Virus record (IMG/VR): IMGVR_UViG_3300023213_000432
Span: 128,001-192,000 of that record
Reading direction: 5' to 3' (one strand)
Source: a virus
Lineage: Duplodnaviria > Caudoviricetes
DNA: 64,000 nt
The notes under the pieces are model-generated. The model searched no databases. It worked only from the letters and a program-made list of their open reading frames with translations, and was not told the origin of the DNA. The translations under genes were made by a program, and so were the position numbers. Shown here piece by piece: positions 5,725-62,922 of the stretch (within the stretch, counting starts at the first letter, position 1; each line of letters starts with the position of its first letter).

Positions 5725-6057
5725 ATGTTTAAATCTCAAGATTATATATATTTGGGGTATGATTCAAAAACAGATCAATTTCGATACGAAACCACTATCG
5801 TGGATGATGATTTTACTGAAATAGTTATCGCTGCCGCCTCCGCTGATGCTATAAGAGCCGTTGTACGAGCCGCTGTCTTGATCGATGTTTATTCTCGAAG
5901 AAATCTCAACGTAGCTGGTAACTTAGCGTTATTAATGCAATACGTAGAAAATAAGTTATGGATGGATATTAAACAGCAAATTGAAGAGTATCAGAAATTT
6001 GTTCCCGCATATCCAAAATACCATGACCAAGTGATGGACTATCTAATATTTATGTGA
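5725..6057 (+). CDS. dispersed paralog family protein, copy 1
   Basis: Family motifs DDDF.E, LID.YSRRNLNVAGNL, KYHDQVMDYLIF. Confidence 0.85.
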   Translation: MFKSQDYIYLGYDSKTDQFRYETTIVDDDFTEIVIAAASADAIRAVVRAAVLIDVYSRRNLNVAGNLALLMQYVENKLWMDIKQQIEEYQKFVPAYPKYHDQVMDYLIFM

Positions 6058-6287
6058 GGATCATAAACGCATTTTTCAGCATCTTGATATGCTGGACGAT
6101 GACAATCTAATTGGCACTGAAAGAAAGTTTTTATTTAAGTGTGAAGATTGTGAAATGATTGTAAGTGCATCCTTTTCTACTGAAGAAGATTTTATAAAGA
6201 TTGCTGAAAATTTATTAGATCTTACATGCCAATGTGAAGGAATTATGAAAGTTTTACGAGATTAATTATTAAAAAATTGAGGTAAAT

Positions 6288-7004
6288 ATGAAAGGCGCCA
6301 TTTACGTTTCTAAATCAGAGAACGCAAAAATTGCAGGCTCCAATCCCATTGATTGCACTTATGTTTCTATTAAACGAAGTTGCCCCGACACTTGCTCACT
6401 ACGAGATAATAAAACGTGTTATGCGGAAAATGGGCATGTGGGTTTTACCGTTCAAAAGTTAGATCATCGGGCTCGTGGATTGTCAGCATTGCAAGTAGCT
6501 AGGGCGGAAGCCAAAGCCATTGATGATGCTTATAAAGGGAAAGAATTTCCTAAAGGCAGAAATTTGCGCCTTCATGTTTCGGGAGATAGTCGCACCATTA
6601 AAGGTACTAGATTGCTTAACAAAGCTATTCAACGCTGGAAACAGCGCGGTGGCGGTAGTTGTTGGTCCTATACTCATGCTTGGAAACGGGTACCGAGAAT
6701 AGAATGGAAAGATGTCAGTATCTTGGCTTCCATCGAACGAGTAGAAGAAGCATTGGAAGCCCGAAAACAAGGATACGCTCCCGCTTTAGTAGTGCCAGAA
6801 CATATTAGTGATAAGTCCTATAAACTGCCCAATTCAGAAATCAAATGGATACCTTGCGTAGCACAAACAAGAAACATACCATGTTCTGATTGTAAATTAT
6901 GTTTTAATGCAGATAGGTTGTTTGAGGGTGGATTTGGAATTACATTTGCGGTGCATGGGGCAAGAAAAAATTCTTTGAAAAGACATTTACAGGTTCTTCA
7001 ATGA
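6288..7004 (+). CDS. Cys-rich phage protein, Gp88-like (possible Fe-S/Zn binding)
   Basis: CPDTC..CYA, LRLHVSGD, WSYTH, CSDCKLC motifs; family assignment from memory. Confidence 0.5.
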   Translation: MKGAIYVSKSENAKIAGSNPIDCTYVSIKRSCPDTCSLRDNKTCYAENGHVGFTVQKLDHRARGLSALQVARAEAKAIDDAYKGKEFPKGRNLRLHVSGDSRTIKGTRLLNKAIQRWKQRGGGSCWSYTHAWKRVPRIEWKDVSILASIERVEEALEARKQGYAPALVVPEHISDKSYKLPNSEIKWIPCVAQTRNIPCSDCKLCFNADRLFEGGFGITFAVHGARKNSLKRHLQVLQ

Positions 7005-7122
7005 GATGTATATTAATGATGATTATGTGTTCTGGATGTTATACGTTTAGTTATAGCGAGAACCGATGTGTTCGTTCAGGCTATTATGAAATGAGTGATG
7101 GCAAAATGGTTCCTATGTATCG

Positions 7123-7386
7123 ATGCACTTCAACAGGCGATATATGACTATCATTCAGTGGCAAGTTTGTATTTCTGATTGGAGTCTGGATGCCAAGCAT
7201 TATACGAAACCGATCCCAGACACTGGAAAGATTGATCATCGAACTGTTCGGGCAAAAACATTCGATACAGAACGAGAAGCTATTAAATATGCAGAGAAAT
7301 ATCTAAAAGATCGAGAAGACATTGAATGGTTAGCTAGTTTAGAGGTTAAGAAATGCACGACGGAAATAATCAAAAAATTGAAATAA
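7123..7386 (+). CDS. hypothetical protein (likely start 7144)
   Basis: ORF track; ATG at 7144 overlaps the stop of a small upstream ORF (7001..7147). Confidence 0.5.
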   Translation: MHFNRRYMTIIQWQVCISDWSLDAKHYTKPIPDTGKIDHRTVRAKTFDTEREAIKYAEKYLKDREDIEWLASLEVKKCTTEIIKKLK

Positions 7387-8735
7387 ATATAAGAACTAAA
7401 GAAGAACGAAATAGCCTACGAGAAGATATGTTTTTAGAACGTAACGGCATGCGTGGCGCTCCTAAAATGGAACTTGCGCTTAGTAATGCTCTTGATCTTC
7501 TTGACGAGAAGGACAAGAAAATCGCAGCTTCGAATTTCAAATTAGCTCATCTCGAAAGTGTATTGCGGGCAATTAGTCAGTGGGATATGATCAATCCGCC
7601 GAACCCAGATACATTGGCAGACGGCACATGGTTGCGGTCACTCATTGATGAAGCGTCCAATGTTCTCAGTGATAATGCTGATGAAATCGCCGCTTTGAAA
7701 GAAGATCTAGCCGATGATGTTGCATACGAGAGGCGCATTAGTGAGTTGTCGGATGCTCTTTTGCGAAAAACTTTGAAAGAAAAATGGAATCTTCTTTGGG
7801 GCCCGGAACTAGAAGATCTAGGAGCGGTTTTCGATCGTTTGCACGTCCGTATCGCTAAGCTCGAAGCTGATCTCAAAACAAAAGCAGATGAGATTGCAGC
7901 CCATGATGGCTTGTGTGACGCTATAGGCGCACAACCGTATCTTTTGGCGCGCATCAAGCAGCTCGAAAGTGTATTGGAAAAGGCGGACGTCATCCGTGAT
8001 TTAGTGCTCGAAGCTGCACCCTTGACGTGGGCAGTTGGCACGCAGTTCGAAGAACATGCGTATTGTTGGGAGAAAGAAATCACGAGCGCTAACGAAGCAT
8101 ATGACCAAGTCCGCGCCTTCGAGCGGAAGACTACGGAGGGGCACACAGGGAATCCTAAGGCGGTCACTAGGAAAGAACCTGAGTCTGTTCCATCACCGTA
8201 CATGGAACCCTCTCGTCCGGCAGAGGCTCCATCAGAGCCGGGCTCCCTTCGGGGAAAGAATGTGTGCCCGACATGTAGTCGCACCATCGGCAGTATCGGA
8301 CACCTTTATAGCGAATGTGAACGGGACTTCGAGCGCGCAGAGGGACAAGACGGCGAGATCAAGGCGGGGCAGCAAGAGCCCGAGTCCGTTCCACAAAGAT
8401 CCCTCTCGCCACGCAATACGCACGATTTCCTCGCACGCATCGTTTGGGACAAAAGTGAGCAGGAATGGCAGCTCTACGCTTTTCGAGATAGCGGCGATTA
8501 CGCATGGTTGTCCCCAGACGAAGATCACCAAGAAATTATATGCATATTTTCGACCAGCGCAGGACACACTTCGTACAAAAAGTTTTCGGATGCATTGAAG
8601 GCGGTGCGTGATTGGATTTTTTCAAGAGACCGATGCGTTGATCATGCAGCCGCCGGAAAAGTATCATCAGCCGATAATCGTACTAGCATTGCCGTTGAGG
8701 GTCATGGAGATGAATGGAAATATACGGGCGATTAA
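7353..8735 (+). CDS. mosaic hypothetical protein in a GC-rich segment
   Basis: 460-aa ORF, coiled-coil N-half, repeated EPESVP motif, GC well above flanks. Confidence 0.6.
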   Translation: MHDGNNQKIEINIRTKEERNSLREDMFLERNGMRGAPKMELALSNALDLLDEKDKKIAASNFKLAHLESVLRAISQWDMINPPNPDTLADGTWLRSLIDEASNVLSDNADEIAALKEDLADDVAYERRISELSDALLRKTLKEKWNLLWGPELEDLGAVFDRLHVRIAKLEADLKTKADEIAAHDGLCDAIGAQPYLLARIKQLESVLEKADVIRDLVLEAAPLTWAVGTQFEEHAYCWEKEITSANEAYDQVRAFERKTTEGHTGNPKAVTRKEPESVPSPYMEPSRPAEAPSEPGSLRGKNVCPTCSRTIGSIGHLYSECERDFERAEGQDGEIKAGQQEPESVPQRSLSPRNTHDFLARIVWDKSEQEWQLYAFRDSGDYAWLSPDEDHQEIICIFSTSAGHTSYKKFSDALKAVRDWIFSRDRCVDHAAAGKVSSADNRTSIAVEGHGDEWKYTGD

Positions 8736-8757
8736 TTTTACAGAATAAAGGTGCAAT

Positions 8758-9216
8758 ATGACAGATACATCAATTTGTGAGTATCCATTAAATACCGGTG
8801 ACGATGGATTTAGCATCGATGGAGTAATGTGTGGCCAACCAGCAACATGGATTTCGTGCATTCCATTTTCGAACACGCCCACTTGTGATGCACATAAGTG
8901 TCGATGCAGAAAACCTATTGATATACAGTCAAATAGAAATAATACAGAACCGGAAAAATCTCAACAGCTTGTCGATGCATTTTCAAAAAAGTATCCCGCG
9001 CTAGGCGAATCCATTGCGATTATTCTTCATTTTGCTCGCGAACAAACGATTGAGGAATGTGCCAAAATTTGCGACACGAAAGAGGCAGAGGAGTGCAATC
9101 TTATTAATTATCATGGATCGGTTGCGCTAGACGCTCAGGGCATAGAGCATCGGACAGCATCGAATTGTGCAGGATCTCTTGCTCGTCAAATCCGTGCGCT
9201 AAAGAATAGTAAATGA
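8758..9216 (+). CDS. hypothetical protein
   Basis: 152-aa ORF with RBS-like AAGGTG upstream, coupled to the next gene. Confidence 0.55.
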   Translation: MTDTSICEYPLNTGDDGFSIDGVMCGQPATWISCIPFSNTPTCDAHKCRCRKPIDIQSNRNNTEPEKSQQLVDAFSKKYPALGESIAIILHFAREQTIEECAKICDTKEAEECNLINYHGSVALDAQGIEHRTASNCAGSLARQIRALKNSK

Positions 9217-11113: not shown

Positions 11114-11452
11114 ATGTTTCGATCTTGCAGTATTACATCCAGATCTAACATACCTGTAATTAGTCAAGAGAGACCGAATTATGAGTATGAAGTTACTATC
11201 GTGGATGATGATTTTTTTGAAACCAAAACTGTTTTTGCCAACGTCGCTACTGAGGCAGCCGCCATCGCATTGATCGATATTTACTCTCAAAAAAATCTCA
11301 ACGTAGCTGGCAATCTAGCGTTGTTGATGCGATATGTAGAACATAATTTTCCAGCGTTAGATATTAACTTGCAAATCAGGGCATACCAAAATAATATTCC
11401 TGAATATTCAAAATACCATGATCAAGTAATGGGTTATCTGGTGTTTTTATGA
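11114..11452 (+). CDS. dispersed paralog family protein, copy 2
   Basis: Family motifs present; divergent N-terminus. Confidence 0.85.
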   Translation: MFRSCSITSRSNIPVISQERPNYEYEVTIVDDDFFETKTVFANVATEAAAIALIDIYSQKNLNVAGNLALLMRYVEHNFPALDINLQIRAYQNNIPEYSKYHDQVMGYLVFL

Positions 11453-11476: not shown

Positions 11477-11806
11477 ATGTTTCGATCTTTTAATTATAAA
11501 TACTTTGGATATAACGGTGAAAAACTTCATCGATATCAAGTTATCATTGTGGATGATGATTTTATTGAAACTGCCACCGTGTTTGCCGTCGCTCCCGGAA
11601 GCATCGCCACTGAAGCCGCTGCCCTGATCGATATTTATTCTCGAAGAAATCTTAATGTGGCTAGTAACTTGGCACTGTTGATGCAATATACAGAACATGT
11701 ATGTCCATGGATAGATATTAAGTGGCAAATCGAGTGTTATCAAAAAGAAATTCCTGAATACCAGAAATACCACGATCAAATAATGGATTATTTAATATTT
11801 TTGTGA
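11477..11806 (+). CDS. dispersed paralog family protein, copy 3
   Basis: Family motifs; tandem with copy 2. Confidence 0.85.
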   Translation: MFRSFNYKYFGYNGEKLHRYQVIIVDDDFIETATVFAVAPGSIATEAAALIDIYSRRNLNVASNLALLMQYTEHVCPWIDIKWQIECYQKEIPEYQKYHDQIMDYLIFL

Positions 11807-19115: not shown

Positions 19116-19188
19116 GGGAGTTTAGTTCATTTAGAAGAACGCGACAATAGCATTGTCGATGTGCTGGGAGCGTAGCCCAGAACTTCCA
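19116..19188 (+). tRNA. tRNA-Ala (anticodon AGC), atypical loops
   Basis: Acceptor GGGAGTT/AACTTCC with G3:U70 and A73; D stem GTTC/GAAC; anticodon stem CGACA/TGTCG with loop ATAGCAT; T stem CTGGG/CCCAG. Confidence 0.7.
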
Positions 19189-19248
19189 CTAACTCGCGCT
19201 TATCTCACTTGTTGAGGTAAGTAGATCGAGTAAAAATTATGGCAATTG

Positions 19249-19769: not shown

Positions 19770-20105
19770 ATGTTTAAATCCTATAGCTGGAAATATCTGG
19801 ATTATGACTCAAAAACAGATCAATGGCGATACGAAATCACTATCATGGATGTTGATTTTACTGAACCCGTTGCCGCCTCGGCCATCACAGCTGACTGGAC
19901 CATCAACGACATCGCCGACGCCCTGATCGATATTTACTCTCGAAGAAATCTCAATGTGGCTGGCAATTTAGTATTGTTTATGCAATATGTAGAAAATAAA
20001 TGGCCATGGCGAGATATTAAACGGCAAATTAAATGGTATCAGAAATACGTTCCCGGATATCAAAAATATCATGATCAAGTAATGGACTATCTAATATTTA
20101 TGTGA
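19770..20105 (+). CDS. dispersed paralog family protein, copy 4
   Basis: Family motifs. Confidence 0.85.
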   Translation: MFKSYSWKYLDYDSKTDQWRYEITIMDVDFTEPVAASAITADWTINDIADALIDIYSRRNLNVAGNLVLFMQYVENKWPWRDIKRQIKWYQKYVPGYQKYHDQVMDYLIFM

Positions 20106-20117: not shown

Positions 20118-20465
20118 ATGTTTAGATTTTATGATTGGAAATGTTTTGAATCTATTTATGAAACAGAAAAATCGCAATATGAAATTACTATCGTGGATGA
20201 TGATTTTATTGAAATCGAAATGATCAGCGTGGGCTTAAGAGGCAATGGTTCTCTCACCGATATCATCGCCACTTTTCACGCTATAATCAATACTTATTCT
20301 CGAAGAAATCTCAATGTAGCTGGAAACCTAGTTTTGTTGATGCAGTTTATAGAACATAAATGGCCATCTATGGATATTAAATGGCAAATTGAGATTTGCC
20401 AGCAATTCATTTCAGAGTATCGGGAATACCATGATCAAGTAATGGATTATTTAATATTTTGGTGA
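20118..20465 (+). CDS. dispersed paralog family protein, copy 5
   Basis: Family motifs; tandem with copy 4. Confidence 0.85.
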   Translation: MFRFYDWKCFESIYETEKSQYEITIVDDDFIEIEMISVGLRGNGSLTDIIATFHAIINTYSRRNLNVAGNLVLLMQFIEHKWPSMDIKWQIEICQQFISEYREYHDQVMDYLIFW

Positions 20466-20479: not shown

Positions 20480-20521
20480 ATGTTTAAATCCTATAGCTGG
20501 AAATATCTGAGTTATACTTAA
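20480..20521 (+). pseudogene. 5' fragment of a paralog family gene
   Basis: ATGTTTAAATCCTATAGCTGGAAATATCTG is identical to the first 30 nt of copy 4, then stops after 13 codons. Confidence 0.8.
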
Positions 20522-20543: not shown

Positions 20544-21143
20544 ATGATGGAAAGAAAGACTCTTAATCTTGGCGGGATCGTTGATTATGATCCTAATTTT
20601 TTGTCTCAAGAAGTAGCTGATGGACTGTTTGTTGCCTTACTTAAAGCTGTAAATTGGGAGCAGCATTACTATACAAACTACAAAACGGGCGCCAAACTTC
20701 CAGTTCCGCGCCACACAGCTTGGTATGCTGATAGTCCCAAAATGGCATATTCTTATTCCGGGATCACTGAAAAAGTTCAGCCATGGCTTCCATCTCTTCT
20801 CGATCTTAGATCCCAGATAGAAAACATTACAGGAGCTACCTACAATAGTGTTCTTCTTAACTTATATCGTAATGGTCGAGACAGTGTTGGGATGCACGCT
20901 GACAATGAAAAGGAATTGGGTATTGATGCTAATATTGCTTCGGTATCATTGGGCGTTACTCGTCTTTTCCAAATGCGCCAAATAGATGGTGCTGATTATG
21001 AACAATATCTTCTAACCCATGGCTCTTTATTAATCATGAGCGGCACCACTCAACATCATTTTAAACATAGTGTTCCCAAAGATCCAAACGTTACCGAACC
21101 ACGGATTAATCTAACATTTAGAAAGTTCTTAAATGACTCCTAA
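20544..21143 (+). CDS. alkB: AlkB-family 2OG-Fe(II) dioxygenase (ALKBH2/3-like)
   Basis: PRHTAWY, NSVLLNLYRNGRDSVGMHADNE, HSVPK..RINLTFR. Confidence 0.88.
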   Translation: MMERKTLNLGGIVDYDPNFLSQEVADGLFVALLKAVNWEQHYYTNYKTGAKLPVPRHTAWYADSPKMAYSYSGITEKVQPWLPSLLDLRSQIENITGATYNSVLLNLYRNGRDSVGMHADNEKELGIDANIASVSLGVTRLFQMRQIDGADYEQYLLTHGSLLIMSGTTQHHFKHSVPKDPNVTEPRINLTFRKFLNDS

Positions 21144-22245: not shown

Positions 22246-23310
22246 TTAGTCTAATCCGAGGGCTTTCATTTTTTTTCTTAATGTACCAATCGTCGTCCCT
22301 AGCAATTTGGCCATTTCTTTACAGTTAGATGTTTTCGACATTTCTTTTAACACTTCTTTGTTTGGCAAAAATACTCTTTGTTTTTTTGAAACCTGTTCAT
22401 ATAATCCATTTAATTTTAATCTCTTGGTAATGGCGTCTGCACTTATTCCAGTAATTTGAGAAACTCGCCTAATATTGCTTTTATTAATCATATTTACTAA
22501 ATCAACATTGGACGGCCAAGTAATGATGGTTCCTTTACGTGGTTTGAAATATTCGCCTCTACCACTTTGGTATTTTGGGTTCGTATTGACATATGCTATA
22601 ATGTCATCAGATATTTTCTTTTTGCGTGGCAAAAAAAGAGTCGCTTCTGGGTAATAGCACCATTTCAAAAATTTTTGACATTCTGTTCCAGAAATCGTCA
22701 CAGTATATTGATCATGTTTCGGAATAATCATTCCACCGCCATTTTTAAGGGTTGTTATTTTCATTTTCTTGACAGATTTTGTGTAAAAATTACTTCTAAA
22801 CCCCAGTCTTTGTAAGCAAAGCGCTATGCTTACGATGAAATTTTTGCTGGCACCAACAATATAACAGGAGGGGTATTTGTTTCTATTACGCTTATATAAT
22901 CCTAACGATCCATCTCCGTCAATGCACCCTCGAATAAAATCTGGTAAATATTGTTCTGGGACATTTGGAAATTCAATAGTAAGAGTTTTGTTAATGATGC
23001 ACCCTTTTGATATTAACCATTCTGATATGCGTTTATCACATAATCGTAATCTGAAATATTCAGGTCGATTTTTAGATGTTGATTGCACAGATAATTGTGG
23101 GCTTATCACGTCTCTAATTTTTTCTAACCAATCTTTATCGCACGAATTAATTTGGTTTGCTATACTGACACCATTTTTAAAAACACAACCATCTGTAAAA
23201 TAAACACCAAGCAAGTAATATGAAATAGCGTCTTCATTAAAGAATGCCGAATAGTTATGAGAATACTTTTGTCGATAAGATTTTTTGATATGTTCCATAT
23301 AAAGATGCAT
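22246..23310 (-). CDS. LAGLIDADG homing endonuclease with C-terminal HTH repeats
   Basis: YLLGVYFTDG and FIRGCIDGDG motifs. Confidence 0.85.
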   Translation of the reverse strand: MHLYMEHIKKSYRQKYSHNYSAFFNEDAISYYLLGVYFTDGCVFKNGVSIANQINSCDKDWLEKIRDVISPQLSVQSTSKNRPEYFRLRLCDKRISEWLISKGCIINKTLTIEFPNVPEQYLPDFIRGCIDGDGSLGLYKRNRNKYPSCYIVGASKNFIVSIALCLQRLGFRSNFYTKSVKKMKITTLKNGGGMIIPKHDQYTVTISGTECQKFLKWCYYPEATLFLPRKKKISDDIIAYVNTNPKYQSGRGEYFKPRKGTIITWPSNVDLVNMINKSNIRRVSQITGISADAITKRLKLNGLYEQVSKKQRVFLPNKEVLKEMSKTSNCKEMAKLLGTTIGTLRKKMKALGLD

Positions 23311-27387: not shown

Positions 27388-28413
27388 TTACTGTGGCGTC
27401 CAAGCATTGGTCGATGAATTGAATAACCAAGTATCGTTGTAATCTTCATCATCTTTGATTCCGCCGAACAATACCGTTCGAGCCGAAAAGACATCATATG
27501 CCATTTGAGCATAGGCTCTTCGCAGAGGCACAGTTCCTGATGGAAGAATTTGCGTCCAAGTATTATTTGTAGGATTGAATACCCAAGTTTCTGCGTTATA
27601 TCCTTGGGCAGTGATTCCTCCAAACAGAATGAATAAGTTATTCCCGCTATCATACACCATGTTTGCCCCATATCTTCCGCTGGGCACCGAACTCGATAAC
27701 CCCAAATTGACACCAAGCCAAAAAGTTCCGTCAAACTGCCAAGTATCTGTCAAAAGTTCCGTTGGACCAGCACCGCCAAAAAGCAAAGTGATCGATGGGC
27801 TGCTAGCTTGAGCATGGTGCAATCTTTTGCTAGGAGCATTGGGTGGGTTCAACAAAGTCCAAGTGTTATTAGAGTGAGTCCAAGCCCACGTGCCAGCAGT
27901 ATAAGTGTTATTGGTTTGTCCGCCAAATAAGATCGCCTTCCCTATTCCAGACTGGTAAGATAGTTTAGCTGACTTTCGACTAACAGGATTAACAATAGCT
28001 CCTGTTCCATTATTAACCAGGCTCCAAGTTCCAGTAAAAGACCAAGTGTCTTGCAATGGATTTAGTTCAGCATTAGCTCCACCGAACAAAATGAGACTAG
28101 TTCCATCAAAAGACATAGAGCCATCGAACCTTCCCGATGGACCAACAATTTCATTTAATAGCACCCAGACAGAACCGTTCCAAAACCAACTGTCATTCAA
28201 AACACCATCGTTGGTGTTGTTTGTGGTTTTTCCTCCGAAAAGAACTGTTCCGATTCCCGGAAGATAGTCCATCATCCCTTGCCAACGAGGCGGAGGAGAA
28301 AAACTAAGTCCAATTCCGGGGAAAAGATCTAACCCAGATCCACTTGGGCCACCACCGGGAGGTGCGGGCGAATAAATTCCGGGTGGGAAGGTGAAGAAAA
28401 AAAGAAACATCAC
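27388..28413 (-). CDS. Kelch/galactose-oxidase-type beta-propeller protein
   Basis: Repeated LFGG...DTW.W..W and PSxR units. Confidence 0.85.
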   Translation of the reverse strand: MMFLFFFTFPPGIYSPAPPGGGPSGSGLDLFPGIGLSFSPPPRWQGMMDYLPGIGTVLFGGKTTNNTNDGVLNDSWFWNGSVWVLLNEIVGPSGRFDGSMSFDGTSLILFGGANAELNPLQDTWSFTGTWSLVNNGTGAIVNPVSRKSAKLSYQSGIGKAILFGGQTNNTYTAGTWAWTHSNNTWTLLNPPNAPSKRLHHAQASSPSITLLFGGAGPTELLTDTWQFDGTFWLGVNLGLSSSVPSGRYGANMVYDSGNNLFILFGGITAQGYNAETWVFNPTNNTWTQILPSGTVPLRRAYAQMAYDVFSARTVLFGGIKDDEDYNDTWLFNSSTNAWTPQ

Positions 28414-28425: not shown

Positions 28426-30324
28426 TTAGACACAGTCATAACCAGTTATAGTTACTGATTCAAGGGTTCCAGAAGCGCCCGCGGCTGCAAATTCTAAGGT
28501 CATGGCAGTTGCAGCGGAACCGACAATATTAAGACCGCTGATATTAAGGCTGCGAACGTCATTAGAGATAGCCGATAAATACTGGCTCCATAGAATAGTT
28601 CCGGTTCCTGTTACGCCATCACGCAAATTAACTAAAGTAGCAGCGTTGGTAGCAGTACCCGCAAAGCTAGCAGAAACGCTAGTGCAGACATGTCTAACAC
28701 CTGCCGCTCCTGCTGCCTTGGTTGCAGTCGCTTGAGTAGCCGCAGATGGTGTGCTAACTACTGTCCAGTTACCAGGTAACACAGTAAGTTCTGCGCCAGT
28801 GGAACTGAAAGCTGATAAATTAGCCGCTGCACCCGATCGAGCCCGATCCATATTGGTGCCATTGAATAACGCTGGATTTTCTGCCACGATATTAACCGCC
28901 GGCATAGCATCGGCAGTAGCAGAACGTTCAATGTAGTAGAGTTGTGATGCCGGATCATAAAGAGCTTCTTCTTCAATGCCGATACCATCTGGTAAGAAAC
29001 CGTTAGTGCCGGGGCCCAGTACCGAATGTTGATCCCATTCAACTGTCGAGTTTTGAGCGTGTGAAAATTGAGTTGCAATTTGGAGTGGAACAGTTGTAGA
29101 ACCAACAGTATAGGTTGCTGATACATAGTTGGTTTCTGGATTGGATCCAACTCGATCAAGAATAACTTTCTGTCCGGGAATTAGGGTAGTTGGCGCGCTA
29201 TTAAGCGTAAGAGTGGTGCTATTAGCAGCCAAAGGATTATTGGAAATAGTTCCGCTTCCCTTACCTTTAGCATTAACGTTACGGGCTCTATCGAATTGGA
29301 AACCAGAAAGCACGCTTCCATTTGCTAATGGGTTGCCATTCCATTCGTATTCAGCCGCAATTGCAGTACCGTTGCCAGAAGCACCATCAAGTTCGCCACC
29401 TGCGGAACGTTCTAATTCGGCTAAGTTGGCATTTGTGTTAAACAAATAAGTCATTGATGCTGACAAACCAGTCAAAGCAATGTTATTACCTGCACCAGCA
29501 TCGCGAGCAACGTTATAGTGAAACCAGCTAAGTGTTTCGTTGCCCGTATGGTTAGCTTTAAAGACGGCGGTAATTGAAGTGCCGCTTGGAACTGCACTGA
29601 CGAAAATGTTTTCTGGATTGGTTCCACCCACCGCGACATAATCACCAATTTTTATGTTTGTCGTGGATGTAACAGTAATAGTTTGGGGCGAGTTGCCGCC
29701 GGTGATAGCGCCTTGATTGATAGTTGTGCTAAAAGGTATTGCAAATTGAGAGCTACCAGCGGTAAGACCCGAGGCTGGCTGACCGTCAAACGCCGTTGAA
29801 CGTTGGCGATCATAGCCCCCTGAGTTAATACCGTTGAGATTAGAACACGGATTAAGAATAGCTGTTGGGCCCGATACATCTAATTGAAATGCCGTGCCAC
29901 TAGGGACTTGGTTATCAGCATTACGACCTTGCGTTGTGCCAACAACATTTACACCGTCTCCAATCTTGATTGGAATTGGGTTATTATTAGCAAGAACCGC
30001 ATTACCTTGCGATAATTGAACGGGAATAGGATTATTTGCTGCTAATACTGAACCACTTTGGGATAATTGACTTGGAATGGGATTGCTAGCAGATAACACT
30101 GCGTTGCTTTGAGATAGCTGAGCCGGAATAGGATTATTAGCTGCTAAAACTGCGTTGCTTTGGGACAATTGAGCTGGAAGTGGATTGGTCGCTGTAATAT
30201 CACCACCATCCGTATCCAAAGATCCAATACGAACCTTGATTACTGGAATTTTATACGCACCAATGTCCTCGGTTGCGATATTATCACCACCAGCTCCTGG
30301 ATTAATCCTTGTATTATCACTCAT
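28426..30324 (-). CDS. probable virion structural (tail/fibre-associated) protein
   Basis: 632 aa, A/G/T/N-rich; N-terminus MSDNTRINPGAGGDNIATEDIG recalled from phage structural proteins. Confidence 0.55.
   Translation of the reverse strand: MSDNTRINPGAGGDNIATEDIGAYKIPVIKVRIGSLDTDGGDITATNPLPAQLSQSNAVLAANNPIPAQLSQSNAVLSASNPIPSQLSQSGSVLAANNPIPVQLSQGNAVLANNNPIPIKIGDGVNVVGTTQGRNADNQVPSGTAFQLDVSGPTAILNPCSNLNGINSGGYDRQRSTAFDGQPASGLTAGSSQFAIPFSTTINQGAITGGNSPQTITVTSTTNIKIGDYVAVGGTNPENIFVSAVPSGTSITAVFKANHTGNETLSWFHYNVARDAGAGNNIALTGLSASMTYLFNTNANLAELERSAGGELDGASGNGTAIAAEYEWNGNPLANGSVLSGFQFDRARNVNAKGKGSGTISNNPLAANSTTLTLNSAPTTLIPGQKVILDRVGSNPETNYVSATYTVGSTTVPLQIATQFSHAQNSTVEWDQHSVLGPGTNGFLPDGIGIEEEALYDPASQLYYIERSATADAMPAVNIVAENPALFNGTNMDRARSGAAANLSAFSSTGAELTVLPGNWTVVSTPSAATQATATKAAGAAGVRHVCTSVSASFAGTATNAATLVNLRDGVTGTGTILWSQYLSAISNDVRSLNISGLNIVGSAATAMTLEFAAAGASGTLESVTITGYDCV
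29971..30186 (-). repeat. four 51-bp tandem repeats encoding NP(I/L)PxQLSQxxxVLxxx
   Basis: Repeat visible in DNA and in aa 47-118 of 28426..30324. Confidence 0.85.
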
Positions 30325-34149: not shown

Positions 34150-34225
34150 GCGTCAGTAGTTCAATTGGTAGAATATCGCGCTTCCAACGCGAGGGTTGTG
34201 GGATCGTGCCCCACTTGACGCTCCA
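34150..34225 (+). tRNA. tRNA-Gly (TCC)
   Basis: Acceptor GCGTCAG/TTGACGC, U73, CCA; anticodon stem TCGCG/CGCGA with loop CTTCCAA; T loop ATCGTGC. Confidence 0.88.
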
Positions 34226-36317: not shown

Positions 36318-36650
36318 ATGTTTAAATTCTTTGAATGGAAATATCTAGGTTATGATCCAAAAACAGATCAGTATCGATCCGAAATCACTATCGTGGATGA
36401 TGATTTTACCGAAACCCTCGTCGCCGCCTCCCCAATCGGCGGCGAAGCCGTTGTTCCACCCGCCACCACCGCCTTAATCGATATTTATTCTCGAAGAAAT
36501 CTCAATGTGGCTGGTAATCTCGTGTTGTTGATGCAAGATATAGAAAGTAAATGGCTAGACATTAAACTACAAATCGAATATTATCAAAAATATATTCCTG
36601 AATATTCAAAATATCACGATCAAGTAATGGGTTATCTAATATTCACATGA
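36318..36650 (+). CDS. dispersed paralog family protein, copy 6
   Basis: Family motifs. Confidence 0.85.
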   Translation: MFKFFEWKYLGYDPKTDQYRSEITIVDDDFTETLVAASPIGGEAVVPPATTALIDIYSRRNLNVAGNLVLLMQDIESKWLDIKLQIEYYQKYIPEYSKYHDQVMGYLIFT

Positions 36651-37162
36651 GTCTGCAAGATAAAAAACGCCTCAAGCGGATTAAAAATGACGTCATTGAG
36701 CGAGATGGAATGATTTGTTGCTACTGCGATACTGTATTGACACTCGAAACATTAACACTTGATCATATCGTTCCTGATAGCAAACGAGGAACTTTCAATT
36801 CCACTAATTTGACAGTTTCTTGTAAAACCTGCAATAATAATCGCGGGAACAAGCCATTCTTTGAATATTGTAAAAAATTCAAATTTTCCGAAGATAAAAT
36901 TAATAAGTATAAGCGACTGTATTTTAATAACCTTAAAATCAAAGTATTGAATATTGCTAAGGAAGAATGTTTAAAGAGTGATTGTGCCATTCCTAAAAAA
37001 TTGATTAATAAAGCTTGCCAGATTTTGAAAATCAAACCTATCTCGTTTGCAAATTATGAGAAGGAATACCCATTGAATATTGATTTTTCCACTTCATGTC
37101 GGAGACGGGAAATTAAATTTTGTTTTGAGCAATTAATAAGGATTATAGAAGTGGATACGTAG
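36647..37162 (+). CDS. HNH endonuclease (McrA-like)
   Basis: RDG..CCYC..TLDHIVP..NL..SCKTCNNNRG. Confidence 0.85.
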   Translation: MSLQDKKRLKRIKNDVIERDGMICCYCDTVLTLETLTLDHIVPDSKRGTFNSTNLTVSCKTCNNNRGNKPFFEYCKKFKFSEDKINKYKRLYFNNLKIKVLNIAKEECLKSDCAIPKKLINKACQILKIKPISFANYEKEYPLNIDFSTSCRRREIKFCFEQLIRIIEVDT

Positions 37163-37170: not shown

Positions 37171-37714
37171 ATGGATATTAAACCTTTAAGAGATCATGTT
37201 GTCGTAGTGAACTACCTTTGCCTAAGGGCAAAAGCTTCGCGTTTCATTGACCTAATACTACTAGCGCCTCACCGCGTTTTTGTTTAATGTCCGACTATAT
37301 TCCGTAACCAGACAGGTTTTCATTACGCTATTATGACTTGGTTTTCGTCAATCTTAGCTTAATGTTATATATCACCATATGCGTACTTTTGTTAAAATAT
37401 TTTTGAGAAAACGCATTCATCTCTCGCCTAAAGGCGAGAGTCTTCTGCTATCAATCATGATAAAAGATGCTGCCCCCGATAAAATAGCGGGAGGATTATT
37501 ATATAAGCCCGATATTGTGGAGGAAGAATTTATTACCGGAACTGTGGTGGCTATTGGTTCTGGTAAAATTGCTGCAGACGGTTCTACCGTTCATTTGGAA
37601 ATATCCATTGGTGACAAGATTGTTTTCAATAGACATGCACCAGTTAAATTGAAAATCAAAGATCAAGACTATTTAGTTCTGCGCGAAGATCAGGTATTGT
37701 GCATTTTGCCATGA
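37171..37714 (+). pseudogene. groES: co-chaperonin GroES interrupted after codon 12
   Basis: AGGAG-ATG MDIKPLRDHVVV (37171-37206), then a 250-bp insertion, then (M)IKDAAPDKIAGGLL..GTVVAIGSG..GDKIVF..LRE..VL; excision restores the frame. Confidence 0.85.
37207..37456 (-). mobile_element. non-autonomous TnpB-type IS200/IS605 element (nuclease gene deleted, both ends kept)
   Basis: Minus strand: TCAT|GATTGATAGCAGAAGACTCTCGCCTTTAGGCGAGAGATGAATGCGT ... GAAGCTTTTGCCCTTAGGCAAAGGTAGTTCAC; left end resembles 63263-63306. Confidence 0.8.
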
Positions 37715-43962: not shown

Positions 43963-45183
43963 GTCAATCACCACCAACACAAGGTTGATGGCTTGCCGCT
44001 AACATTACTGTTGCGGCATATGGCTCATTGACCAGAGCCTGCTCCTTGTCTATCAAGGAGAGAAGTTCGCAAGCATTTTGCTTGCTCTGCTTTTCAAGCA
44101 GATAATTGTTTCGGATGTTGATAGCAGCGTTGAGATCTGCATTACTTTTAAATCCACACTTACCACAATTAAACAGAGATCTGTCCCGATTAACTTTCTC
44201 GGTATGTCCACAGTTAGAACATTTTTGGGAAGTATAGCGAGCATCTACTTTAACTATTTGCTTCCCAAGCTCTTCTGCTTTATATACCAAAAATTGTTCT
44301 AATTGGTAGAACGTCCAATTAGCAAGCCAACCGTTTAATACTTTTCCTTTCCTATGTTTTCTGATCCCTGTTAAATCTTCCAAAACGAACACATCATATG
44401 GCAAACTAACTAACCATTTGCTGATGATATGATTAATATTACGGCTGAACCGCATTTCTCGTCCGGAACGCTTTTTGAGAAGCCGTTTCGCAGAGCGAGT
44501 GCCTTTTGCCATAAGTTGTCTTTTCACAAAAAGAAACTTGCGTTTCTGCTTTCTGATCTCCCATGCATTATATTGTTGTCCGTCCGACAACGAGACGACA
44601 TTATATAATCCACGATCCACTCCAATAACTTTGTCTGATTGTTTAGTTGTCGGAGTAGAAGAGGTAAAAGTTAGGTTAGCCTTGAAGCAATTCTGTTGCT
44701 TGTTGAAGCCAATAGTAGCGGACTGAAACTTCCAACCACTGTATTTCTTAAAATAAGAAGGAATGCTAATAAGTTGGCGGATTCGTTTTCCGCTCCAAGA
44801 GAAGGAAAGAAGATTGCCCCGAAGAGAAACGGTATTCTTATTGTAGCGAATAGCGGAGTAGGGTTTTTTGATAGGCTTGAATTTAAACTTAACAGCTTTA
44901 ACCGCTTCCAAAGCCTGATCTCGAACGCTTTGAATAACACAGGATGGAATGTTAGGGAACTCTTGGCGGAGTTAACGAGTTTGGAAAGCCCATTCTACGT
45001 GTCGATTGAAGATATCGGAGCAAGTTTTTAGGTAATCGAGGAAGCCGGCGGGAACTTCAATTTTGATGGGCAGAGTTCGTTGCATTCAAAACATATATGT
45101 CATTATTGATAGATGTTGAAAGAAAAAGAAAGGGGCAGCTATTCTCATAGCACAGGACTATGGATTTCGTTGCCTAAGAGATC
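43963..45183 (-). mobile_element. IS200/IS605-family TnpB element (no tnpA)
   Basis: Right end CAAGCCATCAACCTTGTGTTGGTGGTGATTGAC; left end TCAT|GATCTCTTAGGCAACG with hairpin CATAG/CTATG. Confidence 0.8.
43964..45085 (-). pseudogene. tnpB: TnpB with an in-frame TAA at codon 38
   Basis: MQRTLPIKIEVP..FQTR*LRQEFP.. in frame with ORF 43964..44911, which has GVDRG, VLEDL, CSNCG..CGKC and ADLNAAINI. Confidence 0.85.
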
Positions 45184-50772: not shown

Positions 50773-51105
50773 ATGTTTCGATCCTTTGACTGGAAATATC
50801 TGGATTATGATCCAACAACAAATCAATCTCGATACGAAATTATTTTTGTAGATGATGATTTTATCGAGACCACAATCGCTGCCTCCATTGCAGACTATGT
50901 CGTTGTCACCGTTTCCATCGCCCTAATCGATATTTACTCTCGAAGAAATCTCAATGTAGCTGGTAATCTAGTTTTGCTGATGCAATATATAGAAAATAAA
51001 CGGTCATGGGCAGATATTAAATGGCAAATCGAGGAATACCAAAAATGCATTCCAGAATATCAAAAATACCATGATCAAGTAATGGACTATCTAGTATTCA
51101 TGTGA
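50773..51105 (+). CDS. dispersed paralog family protein, copy 7
   Basis: Family motifs. Confidence 0.85.
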   Translation: MFRSFDWKYLDYDPTTNQSRYEIIFVDDDFIETTIAASIADYVVVTVSIALIDIYSRRNLNVAGNLVLLMQYIENKRSWADIKWQIEEYQKCIPEYQKYHDQVMDYLVFM

Positions 51106-51117: not shown

Positions 51118-51453
51118 ATGTTTCAATCTTTTGATTGGAGATATCTGGGTTATAATCTAAAAACAAATCAATCTCAATACGAAACTACTTTCGTAGATGA
51201 TGATTTTATCGAAACAGTCGTCGTTTCCTTCATCAGCACCATCAATGACGGATCTTCCCTCGCCGCTGTTCTGATTGATATTTACTCTCAAAGAAATCTC
51301 AATGTAGCGGGCAATCTTGTGTTGTTAATGCAATATATAGAAAATAAATGGCCATGGATAGATATTAAGTGGCAAATCGAGCGTTATCAAAAAGAAGTTC
51401 CTGAATACCAGAAATACCACGATCAAGTAATGGATTATCTAATATTCATGTAG
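51118..51453 (+). CDS. dispersed paralog family protein, copy 8
   Basis: Family motifs; tandem with copy 7. Confidence 0.85.
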   Translation: MFQSFDWRYLGYNLKTNQSQYETTFVDDDFIETVVVSFISTINDGSSLAAVLIDIYSQRNLNVAGNLVLLMQYIENKWPWIDIKWQIERYQKEVPEYQKYHDQVMDYLIFM

Positions 51454-55360: not shown

Positions 55361-56371
55361 TTAATTCACAAAATAGAAAAATTGTATTGGATTGCCACCC
55401 TTTTTATCATAATCTTCTATTAGTCGTTTTTCTCTTTTGAGAATGCCTCTTTTGTATAGTCGTTCTATAAATTTGACACTATATTGTTCAGTCATTATTG
55501 ATAAATTGTTTGCAGCAAATATAGTGTTTAATGGTAATAACAATTCTTTTGCTGGCGTTGGGCCAAATTTTTGCAGAACTTTGAGTGTTAATATTTCTTT
55601 CGCAGAGGGATGCATTCTATTTTTGAAATTAGCATCTGCCAACGGCGGCACATCAGTATAAAATCTGGCTTCTGTTTTTCTCCAAATCTCTGATTTTCTT
55701 GCCATACTTTCTGGGAAAACATTATCAATCTCTTGGAGTAGTTTTCTTGCTGCGCTATCACATGCAACGATACGTAATTTTTCATGACCATCTTTGGCTA
55801 TACCCAAATGTAGAAGGCTGAAATGTTCATTATATCGTTTAGACAACATAGTAGCCAAAAACTCAACATCTTCTGGTAAAAACCCTTCGGTGCATAATCG
55901 AAGATAAAAACGATATTTGGATGCACGTGTTTTGATGTGCCCATCATCAGCAAACCAAACTGCTAATGTTAACGGAGTTAATTCAATATTTCTTGGTACC
56001 ATTTTAATGATCTTGTCTTGCCATGGTTTATACCAAATATCATAGTAATATGTGAATACAGGAAAACGACGTGTTTTTATGCTTGCCATTTCATAAATTT
56101 TATTGTTGATTAATTTTCCATTGATAGTTGGTGCAGGACAACCTCTATGGTAAATGTCTGCGGTTATATATTCATGAAATATTTCATGTTGCCATAGTAG
56201 ATAGTTAATATCTTCAGCGCTTCTTTCAATAGAAAGGCTCGCGTTAGATCGTGAATTTTCCCTTCCAGCCAAGGAACCATCCCCCAACAATAATCCAGTC
56301 ATTATTTCATGTTGAATGCCTGTTAATGGATGTTTCAGGGTATTAATTTCTTCTGCTGTTAATCTTGCCAC
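55361..56371 (-). CDS. LAGLIDADG homing endonuclease
   Basis: GLLLGDGSL and LAVWFADDG. Confidence 0.85.
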   Translation of the reverse strand: MARLTAEEINTLKHPLTGIQHEIMTGLLLGDGSLAGRENSRSNASLSIERSAEDINYLLWQHEIFHEYITADIYHRGCPAPTINGKLINNKIYEMASIKTRRFPVFTYYYDIWYKPWQDKIIKMVPRNIELTPLTLAVWFADDGHIKTRASKYRFYLRLCTEGFLPEDVEFLATMLSKRYNEHFSLLHLGIAKDGHEKLRIVACDSAARKLLQEIDNVFPESMARKSEIWRKTEARFYTDVPPLADANFKNRMHPSAKEILTLKVLQKFGPTPAKELLLPLNTIFAANNLSIMTEQYSVKFIERLYKRGILKREKRLIEDYDKKGGNPIQFFYFVN

Positions 56372-59401: not shown

Positions 59402-59692
59402 ATGTTTCGATCTTATAGTTTGAAACCTCTAGATTACGGATACGAAATCACCATCGTGGATGATGATTTTACTGAATCTGCCTTCGCCATGAACGTGCCC
59501 TCCGTCACTGCCCTGATTAATATTTACTCTCGAAGAAATCTTAATGTGTCTGGCAATTTAGCTTTACTAATACGATATGGAGAATATAAACACTCATGGG
59601 ATATAAAAAGGCAAATTAAATGGTTTCAAGCATATGTTCCTGAATACCAGAAATACCATGATCAAGTAATAGACTATCTAATATTTTTGTGA
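59402..59692 (+). CDS. dispersed paralog family protein, copy 9 (shortest)
   Basis: Family motifs. Confidence 0.85.
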   Translation: MFRSYSLKPLDYGYEITIVDDDFTESAFAMNVPSVTALINIYSRRNLNVSGNLALLIRYGEYKHSWDIKRQIKWFQAYVPEYQKYHDQVIDYLIFL

Positions 59693-59773: not shown

Positions 59774-61315
59774 ATGAAATTTTCTCGTGTAATTGGAAAA
59801 ATTGATCCCAAGCTGATAGAACAAGCTGAAAGAAAATTATCAGAAGTGTTTTTGGAATTAGGAACACGATATGACAATATGGTAGTAGGAAGCGGATTAG
59901 GAGGAGATCCATTTGTCTTCACCCTTCTCTATCCAGTGCAACACATAGCTACTCTTAATATTCCAACTGCCGCCACTGATGGTATTAGATATTATTGGAA
60001 TCCCAAGTTCGTTATTAAACGTTCTAAAATTGGTTTGCGAATTGTTTCGGCTCACGAAGCTTTTCATGCCAACTACATGCATCCCCAAAGACGAGGTTCT
60101 CGATTGCCCAAATTGTGGAATATCGCCATTGATTATATTGTTAATGGAATTATCATGGAAGATTTACAATTCCGTGAGCCGAAAACCAAATTAAATCCCG
60201 AGGACACTTTCATCAAGCATTTGGGAAGATTTATGACTTTGACCCAATATGCGGAATACATCAAGGATCCTTTTGCTAAGATCAAAGGGTTCGATGATTT
60301 GGTTCCTGCAGAGAACGAAAATGGAGTCGAATTACCAGCGCCCGGAGAGGATCGAGAATTAACGCCTCAAGAAACCCGAGAACTAGAAAGAAGAGAAAAA
60401 TCGGTCAAATTTTATTTCGCGGATCCCAACTTAAGCGAGGAGATGAAAAAACCAGAACGAATTTACGATCACCTTTATAATTTGTTGCCCAAGTGTCCCA
60501 AGTGTGGTCAAGTAGGTATTTATCCTAATCCCAACAAGAACAAAAATAAAGCCGATCATAAAGATCACGACCATAAAGATAATAAAAAATGTGATCATGA
60601 AGGGGGTATTGATATTTTTGGATTGGGCGGTTCCACCATGGATGAACACATGGATACCGAAGAAAGCGAGGAAAAGTTAGCTAAACGATTATCTGATGCT
60701 ATGGAAACTTCCAAAAAGATGGCTGGTAAAATTCCCGCAGCTTTGGAAGAAGAGTTGGGAAAATTAATTGCTCCCAAGATCGCTTGGAAAGATGTGATTC
60801 GTGGAAGGATATTAAAATCTAGGGCTGGTAATGAACGTAATGATTGGACGCGATTTCGAACTCGTCCCATGTTTTTTGGTTTATTGGTACCTAAAAGAAA
60901 AGGTTATGTAGCTAGATTTGGTTGTTTGTTAGATACAAGCGGATCGATGAGCAAGGATGATTTAGTTTTTGGGATATCTCAACTTCAAGGACTAGATGAA
61001 AGAAATGAAGGCATTATTGTTCCTGCTGATGCTCAGTGTTATTGGGATCGAGCCACCAAGATTAGAGCTTGTAATGCGGAAGAGTTGAGTAAAGTAAAGA
61101 TAGTAGGAAAAGGTGGTACAATGTTCGGAAACTTTTTCTCTGATTATGAAAAACAAATTGGGCGAGTAGATTTTCTAATTTGTATAACCGACGGATTTTT
61201 GATGGATACCGATATTGCGGCGATGGTGCAACCTAAAGTGCCAGTGTATTGGATTTTGACCAGTAATTCTACTTTCAAGGCGCCCTTTGGAAAAGTATTT
61301 CAGTTAAGGGATTGA
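59774..61315 (+). CDS. putative metallopeptidase / VWA-like domain protein (DUF2201-like), MoxR partner
   Basis: TAATDG, AHEAFH, WNIAID, LDTSGSM, GGT.F, ITDG. Confidence 0.85.
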   Translation: MKFSRVIGKIDPKLIEQAERKLSEVFLELGTRYDNMVVGSGLGGDPFVFTLLYPVQHIATLNIPTAATDGIRYYWNPKFVIKRSKIGLRIVSAHEAFHANYMHPQRRGSRLPKLWNIAIDYIVNGIIMEDLQFREPKTKLNPEDTFIKHLGRFMTLTQYAEYIKDPFAKIKGFDDLVPAENENGVELPAPGEDRELTPQETRELERREKSVKFYFADPNLSEEMKKPERIYDHLYNLLPKCPKCGQVGIYPNPNKNKNKADHKDHDHKDNKKCDHEGGIDIFGLGGSTMDEHMDTEESEEKLAKRLSDAMETSKKMAGKIPAALEEELGKLIAPKIAWKDVIRGRILKSRAGNERNDWTRFRTRPMFFGLLVPKRKGYVARFGCLLDTSGSMSKDDLVFGISQLQGLDERNEGIIVPADAQCYWDRATKIRACNAEELSKVKIVGKGGTMFGNFFSDYEKQIGRVDFLICITDGFLMDTDIAAMVQPKVPVYWILTSNSTFKAPFGKVFQLRD

Positions 61316-61316
61316 T

Positions 61317-61505
61317 ATGTTGCAGGGAATAATAAATGCTATCGCGAGTTTTGAAAGAGAAACTGGAACTAAGCCAGCTGGATTAGTTTTGACTAAACAT
61401 CAATTTGATTGTTTACTGTCTGAACTGGTCTCAAAATGTGTTAAGTTTGAGAGCGGAAGCGATCCATATTGCGGTATTGTTTTGTATGGAACAAGGATCG
61501 AGTAG
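61317..61505 (+). CDS. hypothetical protein
   Basis: Small ORF abutting the previous stop. Confidence 0.5.
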   Translation: MLQGIINAIASFERETGTKPAGLVLTKHQFDCLLSELVSKCVKFESGSDPYCGIVLYGTRIE

Positions 61506-61591
61506 ATTAACGAAAATACTAATGAACTTTGAGAAAGAAAAAATAATTTATCAATTGTGTTCCAAATATACCAATAATATATCATTTTAAT

Positions 61592-62506
61592 ATGGTTAAG
61601 TTTTCCAATGAATTTTTGCTTCCTCATGTCCTAACAAATATTCAACATCAAGTTTTAGTAGGATCACTATTGGGTGATGGATCATTAGAATTGCCTGGCA
61701 AATTTCCACGAATGAAGATTGGTCGTCAAATCAAAGATCATTTGTATTTGGAATGGGAATATAGTCTTTTTCAAGATTTATGCAAGAGTGGCATCAAAAC
61801 AATATGTCGATATGATAGCAGATACAATAAAGCATATAAGCATGTATATTTTCAGACACGAGCGGTGCCGGCATTTTTGAATTATTATCACCAATGGTAT
61901 CCTAATGGAAAAAAGACAGTCCCCAAAGATTTGAAATTAACGTCCCTTATATTGGCAGTATGGTTTGCCGACGATGGCTGTATTATTCGCAAAAATAATC
62001 ATTTAACACTCAAAATAGCGACAGACGGATTTGGATTTGAAGGCGCCAATAGATTATCCCAAAAATTAGAGCAAAGATATAGTTGCAAATTTCCAATCTA
62101 TCAAAAACAAAAAAATAAAGATTTGTGGTTTATAAAAACATCAACGCGTGCCGCCCAACCATTTATTAAAGATATCGCTCCACATATTGAGCAGATGGGC
62201 ATGAGCAGGAAATCTGACTTATGGAAGAGTTTTGATCTCAACACAATTCCTATCGCTGGCAGAATGCCTAATAAGGAAGCAGAAAAACAATTATACAAAG
62301 CAATTTTAAAACTACAGGATTTTTCAGTCAATAAATTAGTTAGTTTAGCAGACCAATATGATATTAATACATTACGCTCATATTTAAATGATTTTATTAA
62401 AGACGGCTATTTAATTAGATATGAAGGTTCAGAAAAATGGAATTTATATCATTACAAAATGACTAATACGGGAAAAAATTTTTTCCGAGAGGTAGCTAGA
62501 AAATGA
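61592..62506 (+). CDS. LAGLIDADG homing endonuclease (paralog of 55361..56371)
   Basis: GSLLGDGSL and LAVWFADDG. Confidence 0.85.
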   Translation: MVKFSNEFLLPHVLTNIQHQVLVGSLLGDGSLELPGKFPRMKIGRQIKDHLYLEWEYSLFQDLCKSGIKTICRYDSRYNKAYKHVYFQTRAVPAFLNYYHQWYPNGKKTVPKDLKLTSLILAVWFADDGCIIRKNNHLTLKIATDGFGFEGANRLSQKLEQRYSCKFPIYQKQKNKDLWFIKTSTRAAQPFIKDIAPHIEQMGMSRKSDLWKSFDLNTIPIAGRMPNKEAEKQLYKAILKLQDFSVNKLVSLADQYDINTLRSYLNDFIKDGYLIRYEGSEKWNLYHYKMTNTGKNFFREVARK

Positions 62507-62583
62507 GTTTGATAGGATTAGTGGCGCTATCGATAGTGTTAGTGGTTGGACTATATGGAAATATGTTAAAGGATAAAGAATAA

Positions 62584-62922
62584 ATGTTTCGATCTTACGA
62601 TTATAAATATCTTGGATTTAACAATAAAACAGATCAATGGCGATATGAAATTACTATCATGGATGACAACTTTACTGAAACTGCTGTTGCCGCCGCCGTC
62701 GCGGACGTTGGCGACAATGACGCTACGCGCATCGCCGCTGTCCTTATCGATATTTATTCTCGAAGAAATCTCAATGTGGCCGGTAATCTAGTTCTGCTGA
62801 TGCAATATATAGAAAATAAATGGTCACGTGATATTAAAAGGCAAATTGAATTGTATCAGGAACATATTATAGAATATCAGAAATATCATGATCAGGTAAT
62901 GGGTTACTTGGTATTTATATGA
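62584..62922 (+). CDS. dispersed paralog family protein, copy 10
   Basis: Family motifs. Confidence 0.85.
   Translation: MFRSYDYKYLGFNNKTDQWRYEITIMDDNFTETAVAAAVADVGDNDATRIAAVLIDIYSRRNLNVAGNLVLLMQYIENKWSRDIKRQIELYQEHIIEYQKYHDQVMGYLVFI

Follow-up and report, generated by a model that had tools for sequence, protein, structure and literature searches.

A hypervariable, C-ending codon segment in a multi-copy phage protein: possible remnant of an in-frame triplet array

The 64,000-nucleotide stretch of virus DNA analysed here (the window; bases 128001-192000 of the 198,652-bp IMG/VR record IMGVR_UViG_3300023213_000432, class Caudoviricetes, G000 below) encodes ten copies of a small protein of 96-115 amino acids (aa), each of which carries, at a fixed position, an in-frame segment whose sequence differs from copy to copy and whose third codon positions are rich in C. 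We consider it somewhat better than an even chance, with a probability of roughly 0.55, that this segment is the remnant of a coding triplet array of the CCG/CGG class, decayed in this phage and turning over by slippage or unequal recombination. Two mechanisms had been offered for the segment in a first-pass annotation of the window, templating by a reverse transcriptase (RT) in the manner of a diversity-generating retroelement (DGR), and slippage or recombination of a (GCC)n tract. The latter fits best, given a third base that is uniform within lineages and tandem arrays detected in relatives, and the former is not supported.

The ten copies were located as open reading frames (ORFs) by tblastn and hidden Markov model (HMM) searches in a record that is linear, of 39% GC and with an estimated CheckV completeness of 46%. 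Thirteen copies occur in the whole record, and two further proteins of the family are found on the record for a 327-kb contig of the same phage. They share the pattern MF..WKYL..YEITIVDDDF.E, followed by the variable segment and then by LIDIYSRRNLNVAGNL...YQKYHDQVMDYLIF, with identities of 50-71% between nearest-neighbour copies. As the annotation had described, an in-frame segment of 12-23 codons lies between conserved flanks in 10/10 window copies, bounded by D[DV][DN]F.E and [LI]I[DN].YS. The copies, in window coordinates, and the fraction of their segment codons with C at the third position (C3) are as follows.

5725-6057, plus strand: paralog 1, 110 aa; segment 5821-5877, 19 codons, C3 7/19
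11114-11452, plus strand: paralog 2, 112 aa, first of a tandem pair; segment 11222-11269, 16 codons, C3 7/16
11477-11806, plus strand: paralog 3, 109 aa, second of the tandem pair; segment 11570-11623, 18 codons, C3 10/18
19770-20105, plus strand: paralog 4, 111 aa, first of a tandem pair; segment 19866-19922, 19 codons, C3 14/19
20118-20465, plus strand: paralog 5, 115 aa, second of the tandem pair; segment 20214-20282, 23 codons, C3 11/23, the segment poorest in Ala
20480-20521, plus strand: truncated third copy, 13 codons and then a stop, a cassette remnant after the same spacer as in the tandem pair
36318-36650, plus strand: paralog 6, 110 aa; segment 36414-36473, 20 codons, C3 15/20, GC 0.73
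50773-51105, plus strand: paralog 7, 110 aa, first of a tandem pair; segment 50869-50922, 18 codons, C3 11/18
51118-51453, plus strand: paralog 8, 111 aa, second of the tandem pair; segment 51214-51270, 19 codons, C3 12/19
59402-59692, plus strand: paralog 9, 96 aa; segment 59477-59512, 12 codons, C3 8/12
62584-62922, plus strand: paralog 10, 112 aa; segment 62680-62742, 21 codons, C3 12/21

Summed over the ten window segments, third positions hold 107 C, 47 T, 21 A and 10 G (n = 185), C thus accounting for 58% as against 12% in the flanks (110/911), and the GC content of the segments is 0.48-0.73 as against about 0.30. This bears out the annotation's contrast between C-rich third positions and A/T-ending flanks, and its hand counts for five copies (15/20, 14/19, 12/21 with 19/21 pyrimidine, 12/19 and 11/18) proved exact. 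A larger set of 15 copies is formed by the 13 in G000 and two in G001, a related 118-kb uncultivated viral genome (UViG) record that is, like G000, a fragment (CheckV 28%). In this set 170/274 segment codons end in C, whereas 54.7 (standard deviation 6.5, z = 17.6) would be expected from amino-acid composition and genome-wide usage, taken from 151 long ORFs of G000. At four-fold sites C reaches 68% in the segments, compared with 15% in the flanks and 19% genome-wide, and the C-ending codon is favoured for every amino acid, two-fold ones included (GAC 12/15 in segments but 16/138 in flanks; ATC 20/26 in segments). A single synonymous codon, GCC, supplies 79 of the 105 segment Ala codons against a genome-wide usage of 19%; it heads a codon spectrum continued by its one- and two-step neighbours ATC, GTC, GCT, ACC, TCC and GTT. 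Since the observed number of C-ending codons so far exceeds the expected one, and since the preference extends to every amino acid, an Ala/Val/Thr-rich composition, which the annotation had named among the findings that would refute its reading, does not account for the bias, and the signal is real and strong.

Several other sources of such a bias were considered and discarded. A high-GC foreign origin of the segment is ruled out by the near lack of G-ending codons (GCG 3 against GCC 79, GTG 3 against GTC 23), and GC-biased gene conversion by the same strand asymmetry. No RNA structure was detected in or around the segment, where codon-shuffled controls reach the same minimum free energy and no consistent pairing partners emerge. 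Overlapping genes were also rejected: other-frame and antisense ORFs are open across the segment, because the C-rich stretch is without stop-prone codons, yet they are not conserved among copies. A scan of the genome for period-3 C was unspecific, its minus-strand matches being mostly the first-position G of codons in plus-strand genes.

A word-based search placed the family only in this phage, in G001 and in two short contigs; a full HMM search retrieved 496 cluster representatives at E ≤ 0.001. GenBank phages contain no homologue by tblastn, a metagenome scan for the family returned only a spurious permease match, and in a viral-contig scan the alignment of distant members had no usable conserved stretch, narrower alignments leading to one locus. 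DNA was obtained for eleven further copies (the L-numbered relatives), so that 26 copies were compared in all. Their segments fall out as follows.

L006, L007 and L012 (nearest relatives, 45-46% GC): 11/13 and 13/18, 18/18, and 13/15 C-ending codons, respectively, mostly GCC, ACC and GTC; flanks GC 0.41-0.46
L009: 14/19 C-ending, segment GC 0.84; flanks GC 0.21; GCC forms 9% of Ala codons in neighbouring genes
L008 (two tandem copies, L008a and L008b): 21/25 and 22/36 G-ending, Ala/Val-rich, with GCG and GTG
L013: 17/28 G-ending, Ala/Val-rich, with GCG and GTG
L011 and L014: GC-rich segment with mixed third bases; flanks GC 0.19 and 0.23
L010 (two copies): AT-rich, unbiased segment; flanks GC 0.19-0.24

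The preferred third base is therefore a property of the lineage. In L008 and L013 it is G, against neighbouring genes in which GCC makes up 46-52% and GCG 8-14% of Ala codons. Judging from these sequences, neither an AAC template nor selection for codon usage or for GC can account for a third base that varies between lineages, stays uniform inside each of them and runs counter to the codon usage around it; amplification of a codon unit gives just this result. The two forms belong together, since (GCC)n read on the other strand and in a shifted phase becomes (GCG)n, and both thus fall into the CCG/CGG repeat class. Homologues also differ in segment length, always in frame, with up to 36 codons in L008b.

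Tandem arrays are directly detectable in a number of these copies. Tandem Repeats Finder (TRF) reports CGG-type arrays with periods of 6, 9 and 15 inside the L008 segments (score up to 93), (GCC)x18 plus a period of 9 in L007, and two 9-nt units in L013, one at 100% identity. The most clear-cut individual case of a recent in-frame duplication is that of L013, where 2.4 copies of a 9-nt unit stand in perfect tandem within the segment (L013:3642-3663). At a permissive threshold arrays lie inside the segment in 12/26 copies, namely those of L006, L007, L008, L009, L012 and L013, both G001 copies, and two G000 copies outside the window, at genome positions 55850 (a 15-nt unit x2.6) and 196509 ((GCC)x5.7). 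Periods are multiples of three (3, 6, 9, 15, 18) in 20 of 21 calls, the remaining one being a period of 8 in L013. Multi-codon repeats exceed codon-order shuffles in four copies (G000 55850, P < 0.005; L006a, 0.005; L008a, 0.02; L013, 0.04), and the summed multi-codon repeat score does so with P = 0.025.

Several results weigh against an array origin and have to be set beside these. In the ten window copies TRF makes no call even at a score of 24, period-3 calls are largely compositional, shuffled segments yielding them too, and adjacent identical codons show no excess over codon-order shuffles (33 vs 29.5, P = 0.24). Because of these three results, we infer a repeat origin for the window copies from codon uniformity and from their relatives rather than seeing it directly. 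The ordinary AT-rich segments of L010 moreover show that variability at this position needs no repeat. The window arrays do look decayed, their non-C third bases being mostly T (47/78 in the window, 68/104 in the 15 copies), a pattern to be expected of C-to-T decay in an AT-rich genome.

The turnover of the segment stands out against the gene that contains it. Flanks are under purifying selection (median ratio of nonsynonymous to synonymous divergence, dN/dS, 0.24), and their synonymous divergence is moderate and unsaturated, with a median proportion of synonymous differences (pS) of 0.51 and values of 0.30 for the closest pairs. Where copies agree in a residue, they also agree in its codon at a rate of 0.66-0.84 throughout the gene, and DNA beside the segment shows no special conservation. 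Pairwise similarity between segments does not rise above what codon shuffling produces (mean z 0.24), and 5% of pairs exceed z = 2. The description of the segments as unrelated therefore holds for their overall similarity, which is at chance level, but not for short shared cores that persist, such as 17 nt at 94% between the segments of the copy at genome position 78236 (outside the window) and of paralog 8 (51118). Unsaturated flanks and chance-level segments together mean that either the segment has turned over faster than the synonymous sites of its own gene, or the flanks have been homogenised while the segment has not.

AlphaFold2 models of copies 50773 (from 20 sequences) and 62584 (from 70 sequences), with mean confidence (pLDDT) of 94.6 and 95.3 and predicted template-modelling scores (pTM) of 0.86 and 0.87, respectively, both predict a small alpha/beta protein of three antiparallel strands followed by four helices. 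In both the segment is predicted to form strand 3, a short loop and the first turns of helix 1 (strand 3 residues 31-38, loop 39-42 and helix 1 residues 43-57 in copy 50773; 31-39, 40-45 and 46-60 in copy 62584), the loop being the least confident part. The composition of the segment fits these models, with beta-branched residues first and Ala at the end, and length changes would be placed in the loop. The earlier assignment to a surface loop thus captures one portion of the segment, which in the two models also covers strand 3 and the start of helix 1. The protein has no Pfam or PHROG family, nor a convincing fold match in PDB, AFDB clusters, VIA-wide (best Z 5.8), ESM Atlas or BFVD. A rough pattern-based extraction of segment length and Ala content from 137 family representatives gave about 5-34 residues at this position, with Ala at 30% or more in 11/137 and below 15% in 92/137. 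The position is thus variable throughout the family, and the GC-rich array, to judge from the rarity of Ala-rich representatives, is a feature of a clade.

A mechanism consistent with these observations would begin with an array whose codons are GCC (Ala) in this phage and those closest to it, and GCG in a sister lineage, placed in the one change-tolerant part of the protein formed by strand 3, the following loop and the first part of helix 1. Codons would be gained and lost as whole units, one at a time or in blocks of 2-6, through replication slippage or through unequal recombination among the numerous paralogs, with only in-frame products surviving. Because each duplication would copy the third base of its unit, that base would stay uniform (C here), while first and second positions would drift among the transition neighbours of GCC (ACC, GTC, ATC, GCT, TCC), which would be kept for the small and beta-branched residues needed by the strand and the helix cap. 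Copies would come to look unrelated because such indel turnover scrambles the segment faster than flank synonymous sites change, and in a 39%-GC genome the arrays would have decayed partly towards T, leaving C3 at 58%. Both the process, slippage or unequal recombination, and the direction, from array to decay, are what the comparison of copies and lineages suggests.

A DGR requires an RT, a template repeat and a variable repeat, AAC repeats being a hallmark of the template, and one template can serve many targets, with several targets per genome possible (PMC6642488). Mutagenic retrohoming of this kind, in which an RT would copy an (AAC)n-type template with errors at adenines and write NNC codons into each paralog, has an evident appeal, since AAC template codons classically yield NNC/NNY codons, the L007 segment is NNC in every one of its 18 codons, and both records are fragments, which leaves room for an RT elsewhere in the genome. 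The sequences examined do not support such retrohoming, and we regard it as highly improbable. The search of the remaining record that the annotation had called for, for an RT and an A-rich template, found neither: RVT_1 has no match at E ≤ 10 in G000 (198.6 kb) or in G001 (118 kb), and a template scan of G000 allowing any mismatch at template adenines recovered only the segments themselves and trivial matches in an A-rich gene end at genome position 110046. The best non-self windows of that scan carry at least three non-A mismatches in 36 nt, within an A-rich tract; the site at 110046 is rich in purines and is no AAC template. A blastn-short search of G000 gave no second match to any segment, only chance 11-14-mers without guide- or template-like character. 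The conserved right-flank motif occurs exactly 13 times in G000, once per gene, with no orphan copy, and the record contains no (AAY)n tract of five or more units. The segments themselves also speak against a DGR. A DGR preserves length, whereas window segments measure 12, 16, 18, 18, 19, 19, 19, 20, 21 and 23 codons. Near-random substitution at adenine-derived positions is likewise not what is seen, since in the 15 segments position 1 is G in 55% and position 2 is C in 51% of codons, AAC accounts for only 4/274, and sister lineages carry NNG-biased segments. The segment, in addition, takes an internal place in what is modelled as a small alpha/beta fold instead of forming a C-terminal variable region of lectin or Ig type; the annotation had already remarked that variable length and internal position are unlike classical DGRs.

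Two other accounts were weighed. In the first no special mutational process is at work: the segment may simply be the least constrained part of the protein, and selection acting either on the peptide or on the nucleic acid, through RNA structure, the binding of a protein to the C-rich tract or the speed of translation, would maintain its richness in Ala and GC. This agrees with the variability of the position throughout at least 496 representatives, with the low Ala content of 92/137 of them in the rough extraction, with L010, whose copies vary without bias, and with window copies that lack an order-level repeat signal. It is nonetheless rather unlikely, because peptide selection could not fix a synonymous third base, and selection for GC or for host codons would not yield near-pure C in one lineage and near-pure G in another, each opposing the codon usage of its neighbours; the free energies and the unconserved overlapping ORFs described above also speak against it. 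Alternatively, the loop between strand 3 and helix 1 may be a specificity determinant, with positive selection having driven the 13-15 paralogs apart and the array serving as raw material. Segments have indeed diverged beyond the synonymous divergence of their own flanks, positions 1 and 2 are more variable than the third (1.56 and 1.62 vs 1.37 bits of entropy), and the family has expanded to 13 copies in this record, to which the two additional proteins on the 327-kb contig are to be added. Such adaptive diversification is compatible with a decaying array but adds a function to it, and we find it unlikely: dN/dS is not measurable within segments that cannot be aligned, indel turnover alone can give the same picture, and the protein has no Pfam, PHROG or convincing fold match. 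Still less probable is that the array, far from being debris, is a working, enzyme-free diversifier, with slippage and unequal recombination among paralogs continuing to rewrite the strand 3-helix 1 loop of a mobile cassette protein present in many copies.

Members of the family behave like insertable cassettes, with an ATG that touches the upstream stop or comes shortly after it and with a 12-nt spacer common to the tandem pairs. Copy 59402 lies between genes for a MoxR-like ATPase and a DUF2201 protein that are adjacent in L006 (L006:1518-4193) and in L008 (L008:5228-7914), with aa identities of 63-69% and 53-58%, respectively. Copy 62584 is syntenic with a copy upstream of an Fe-S assembly gene in L006. 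In 20-kb flanks G001 has no blastn-level similarity to G000, yet the DNA of its two copies matches that of copies in G000 at about 78% identity. The truncated copy at 20480-20521 lies just upstream of a 2OG-Fe(II) oxygenase gene (20544-21143).

Genes of selfish elements are dense in the window, comprising one HNH endonuclease, three LAGLIDADG endonucleases and a TnpB-like protein (with a Cas12f1-like TNB domain), at the following positions.

36647-37162: HNH endonuclease gene, its start overlapped by the stop of paralog 6 (36318)
61592-62506: selfish-element gene
55361-56371, minus strand: selfish-element gene
22246-23310, minus strand: selfish-element gene
43964-44911, minus strand: selfish-element gene

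Two of the endonuclease genes are immediate neighbours of family copies. An element of about 260 bp at 37201-37462 (minus strand), a short way downstream of the HNH gene, may be a miniature mobile element; it recurs at genome positions 67652-67898 and 192460-192573 and at L002:19015-19273, with 84-92% identity between two phages. A motif of about 45 bp (90-98% identity) is common to two phages otherwise dissimilar in DNA, at L001:5655-5699 and at least seven times in G000 (genome positions 65133, 75937, 99326, 110843, 114395, 122088 and 167252). ARAGORN calls a tRNA-Ala with anticodon AGC at window positions 19116-19189, for which Rfam gives no call at its gathering threshold; this anticodon is unusual for tRNA-Ala of bacteria and phages. 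Five other tRNAs were called at 34150, 55195, 55274, 56908 and 56987. A 51-bp unit is repeated 3.5 times (72% matches) at 30007-30186, inside a 632-aa ORF (28426-30324, minus strand) whose neighbour (27388-28413, minus strand) encodes a Kelch-repeat protein.

On the preferred reading, a decayed GCC triplet array can give rise to the NNC codon signature that is often taken as a hallmark of DGRs, an origin worth bearing in mind when phage genomes are screened for diversity generators. The analysis also defines a previously uncharacterised phage protein family of about 110 aa, with a fixed hypervariable position and cassette behaviour. Should the array be unstable in populations, it would constitute a simple in-frame diversification device in a large phage. 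Should it moreover act as an enzyme-free diversifier, each copy and phage lineage could receive its own specificity, and the array would be functionally analogous to a DGR while needing no RT.

Among known systems, DGR variable regions of the Bordetella phage BPP-1 Mtd type are likewise short hypervariable stretches of phage coding sequence with an NNC/NNY bias and possibly several targets (PMC6642488). For the present segment, by contrast, no RT or template was found, length is variable, the first two codon positions are strongly non-random, sister lineages favour NNG, and the stretch occupies an internal position in a protein of non-lectin fold. Polyalanine tracts, imperfect GCN runs in coding regions, expand and contract by what has been attributed to slippage or unequal recombination. 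They share the in-frame length change of an Ala-rich run, the dominance of one GCN codon against its background, and imperfect arrays; the phage segment, known from sequence comparison of copies, differs in belonging to a small multi-copy gene, in being much diversified to Val, Thr, Ile and Ser, and in forming a strand-loop-helix element rather than a disordered tail. Bacterial contingency loci and size-variable surface proteins are built on in-frame repeats, and a simple-sequence tract within an ORF could here, too, generate variants without an enzyme of its own, although its units are single codons and not long repeats or frame-shifting tracts. Mycobacterial proteins of the PE_PGRS type contain GC-rich Gly/Ala repeat regions; the phage segments are far shorter (12-36 codons), lie in AT-rich genes, have no homology to them and stand in a different host genome context, but in both cases a GC-rich, triplet-based coding region of low complexity differs widely among paralogs.

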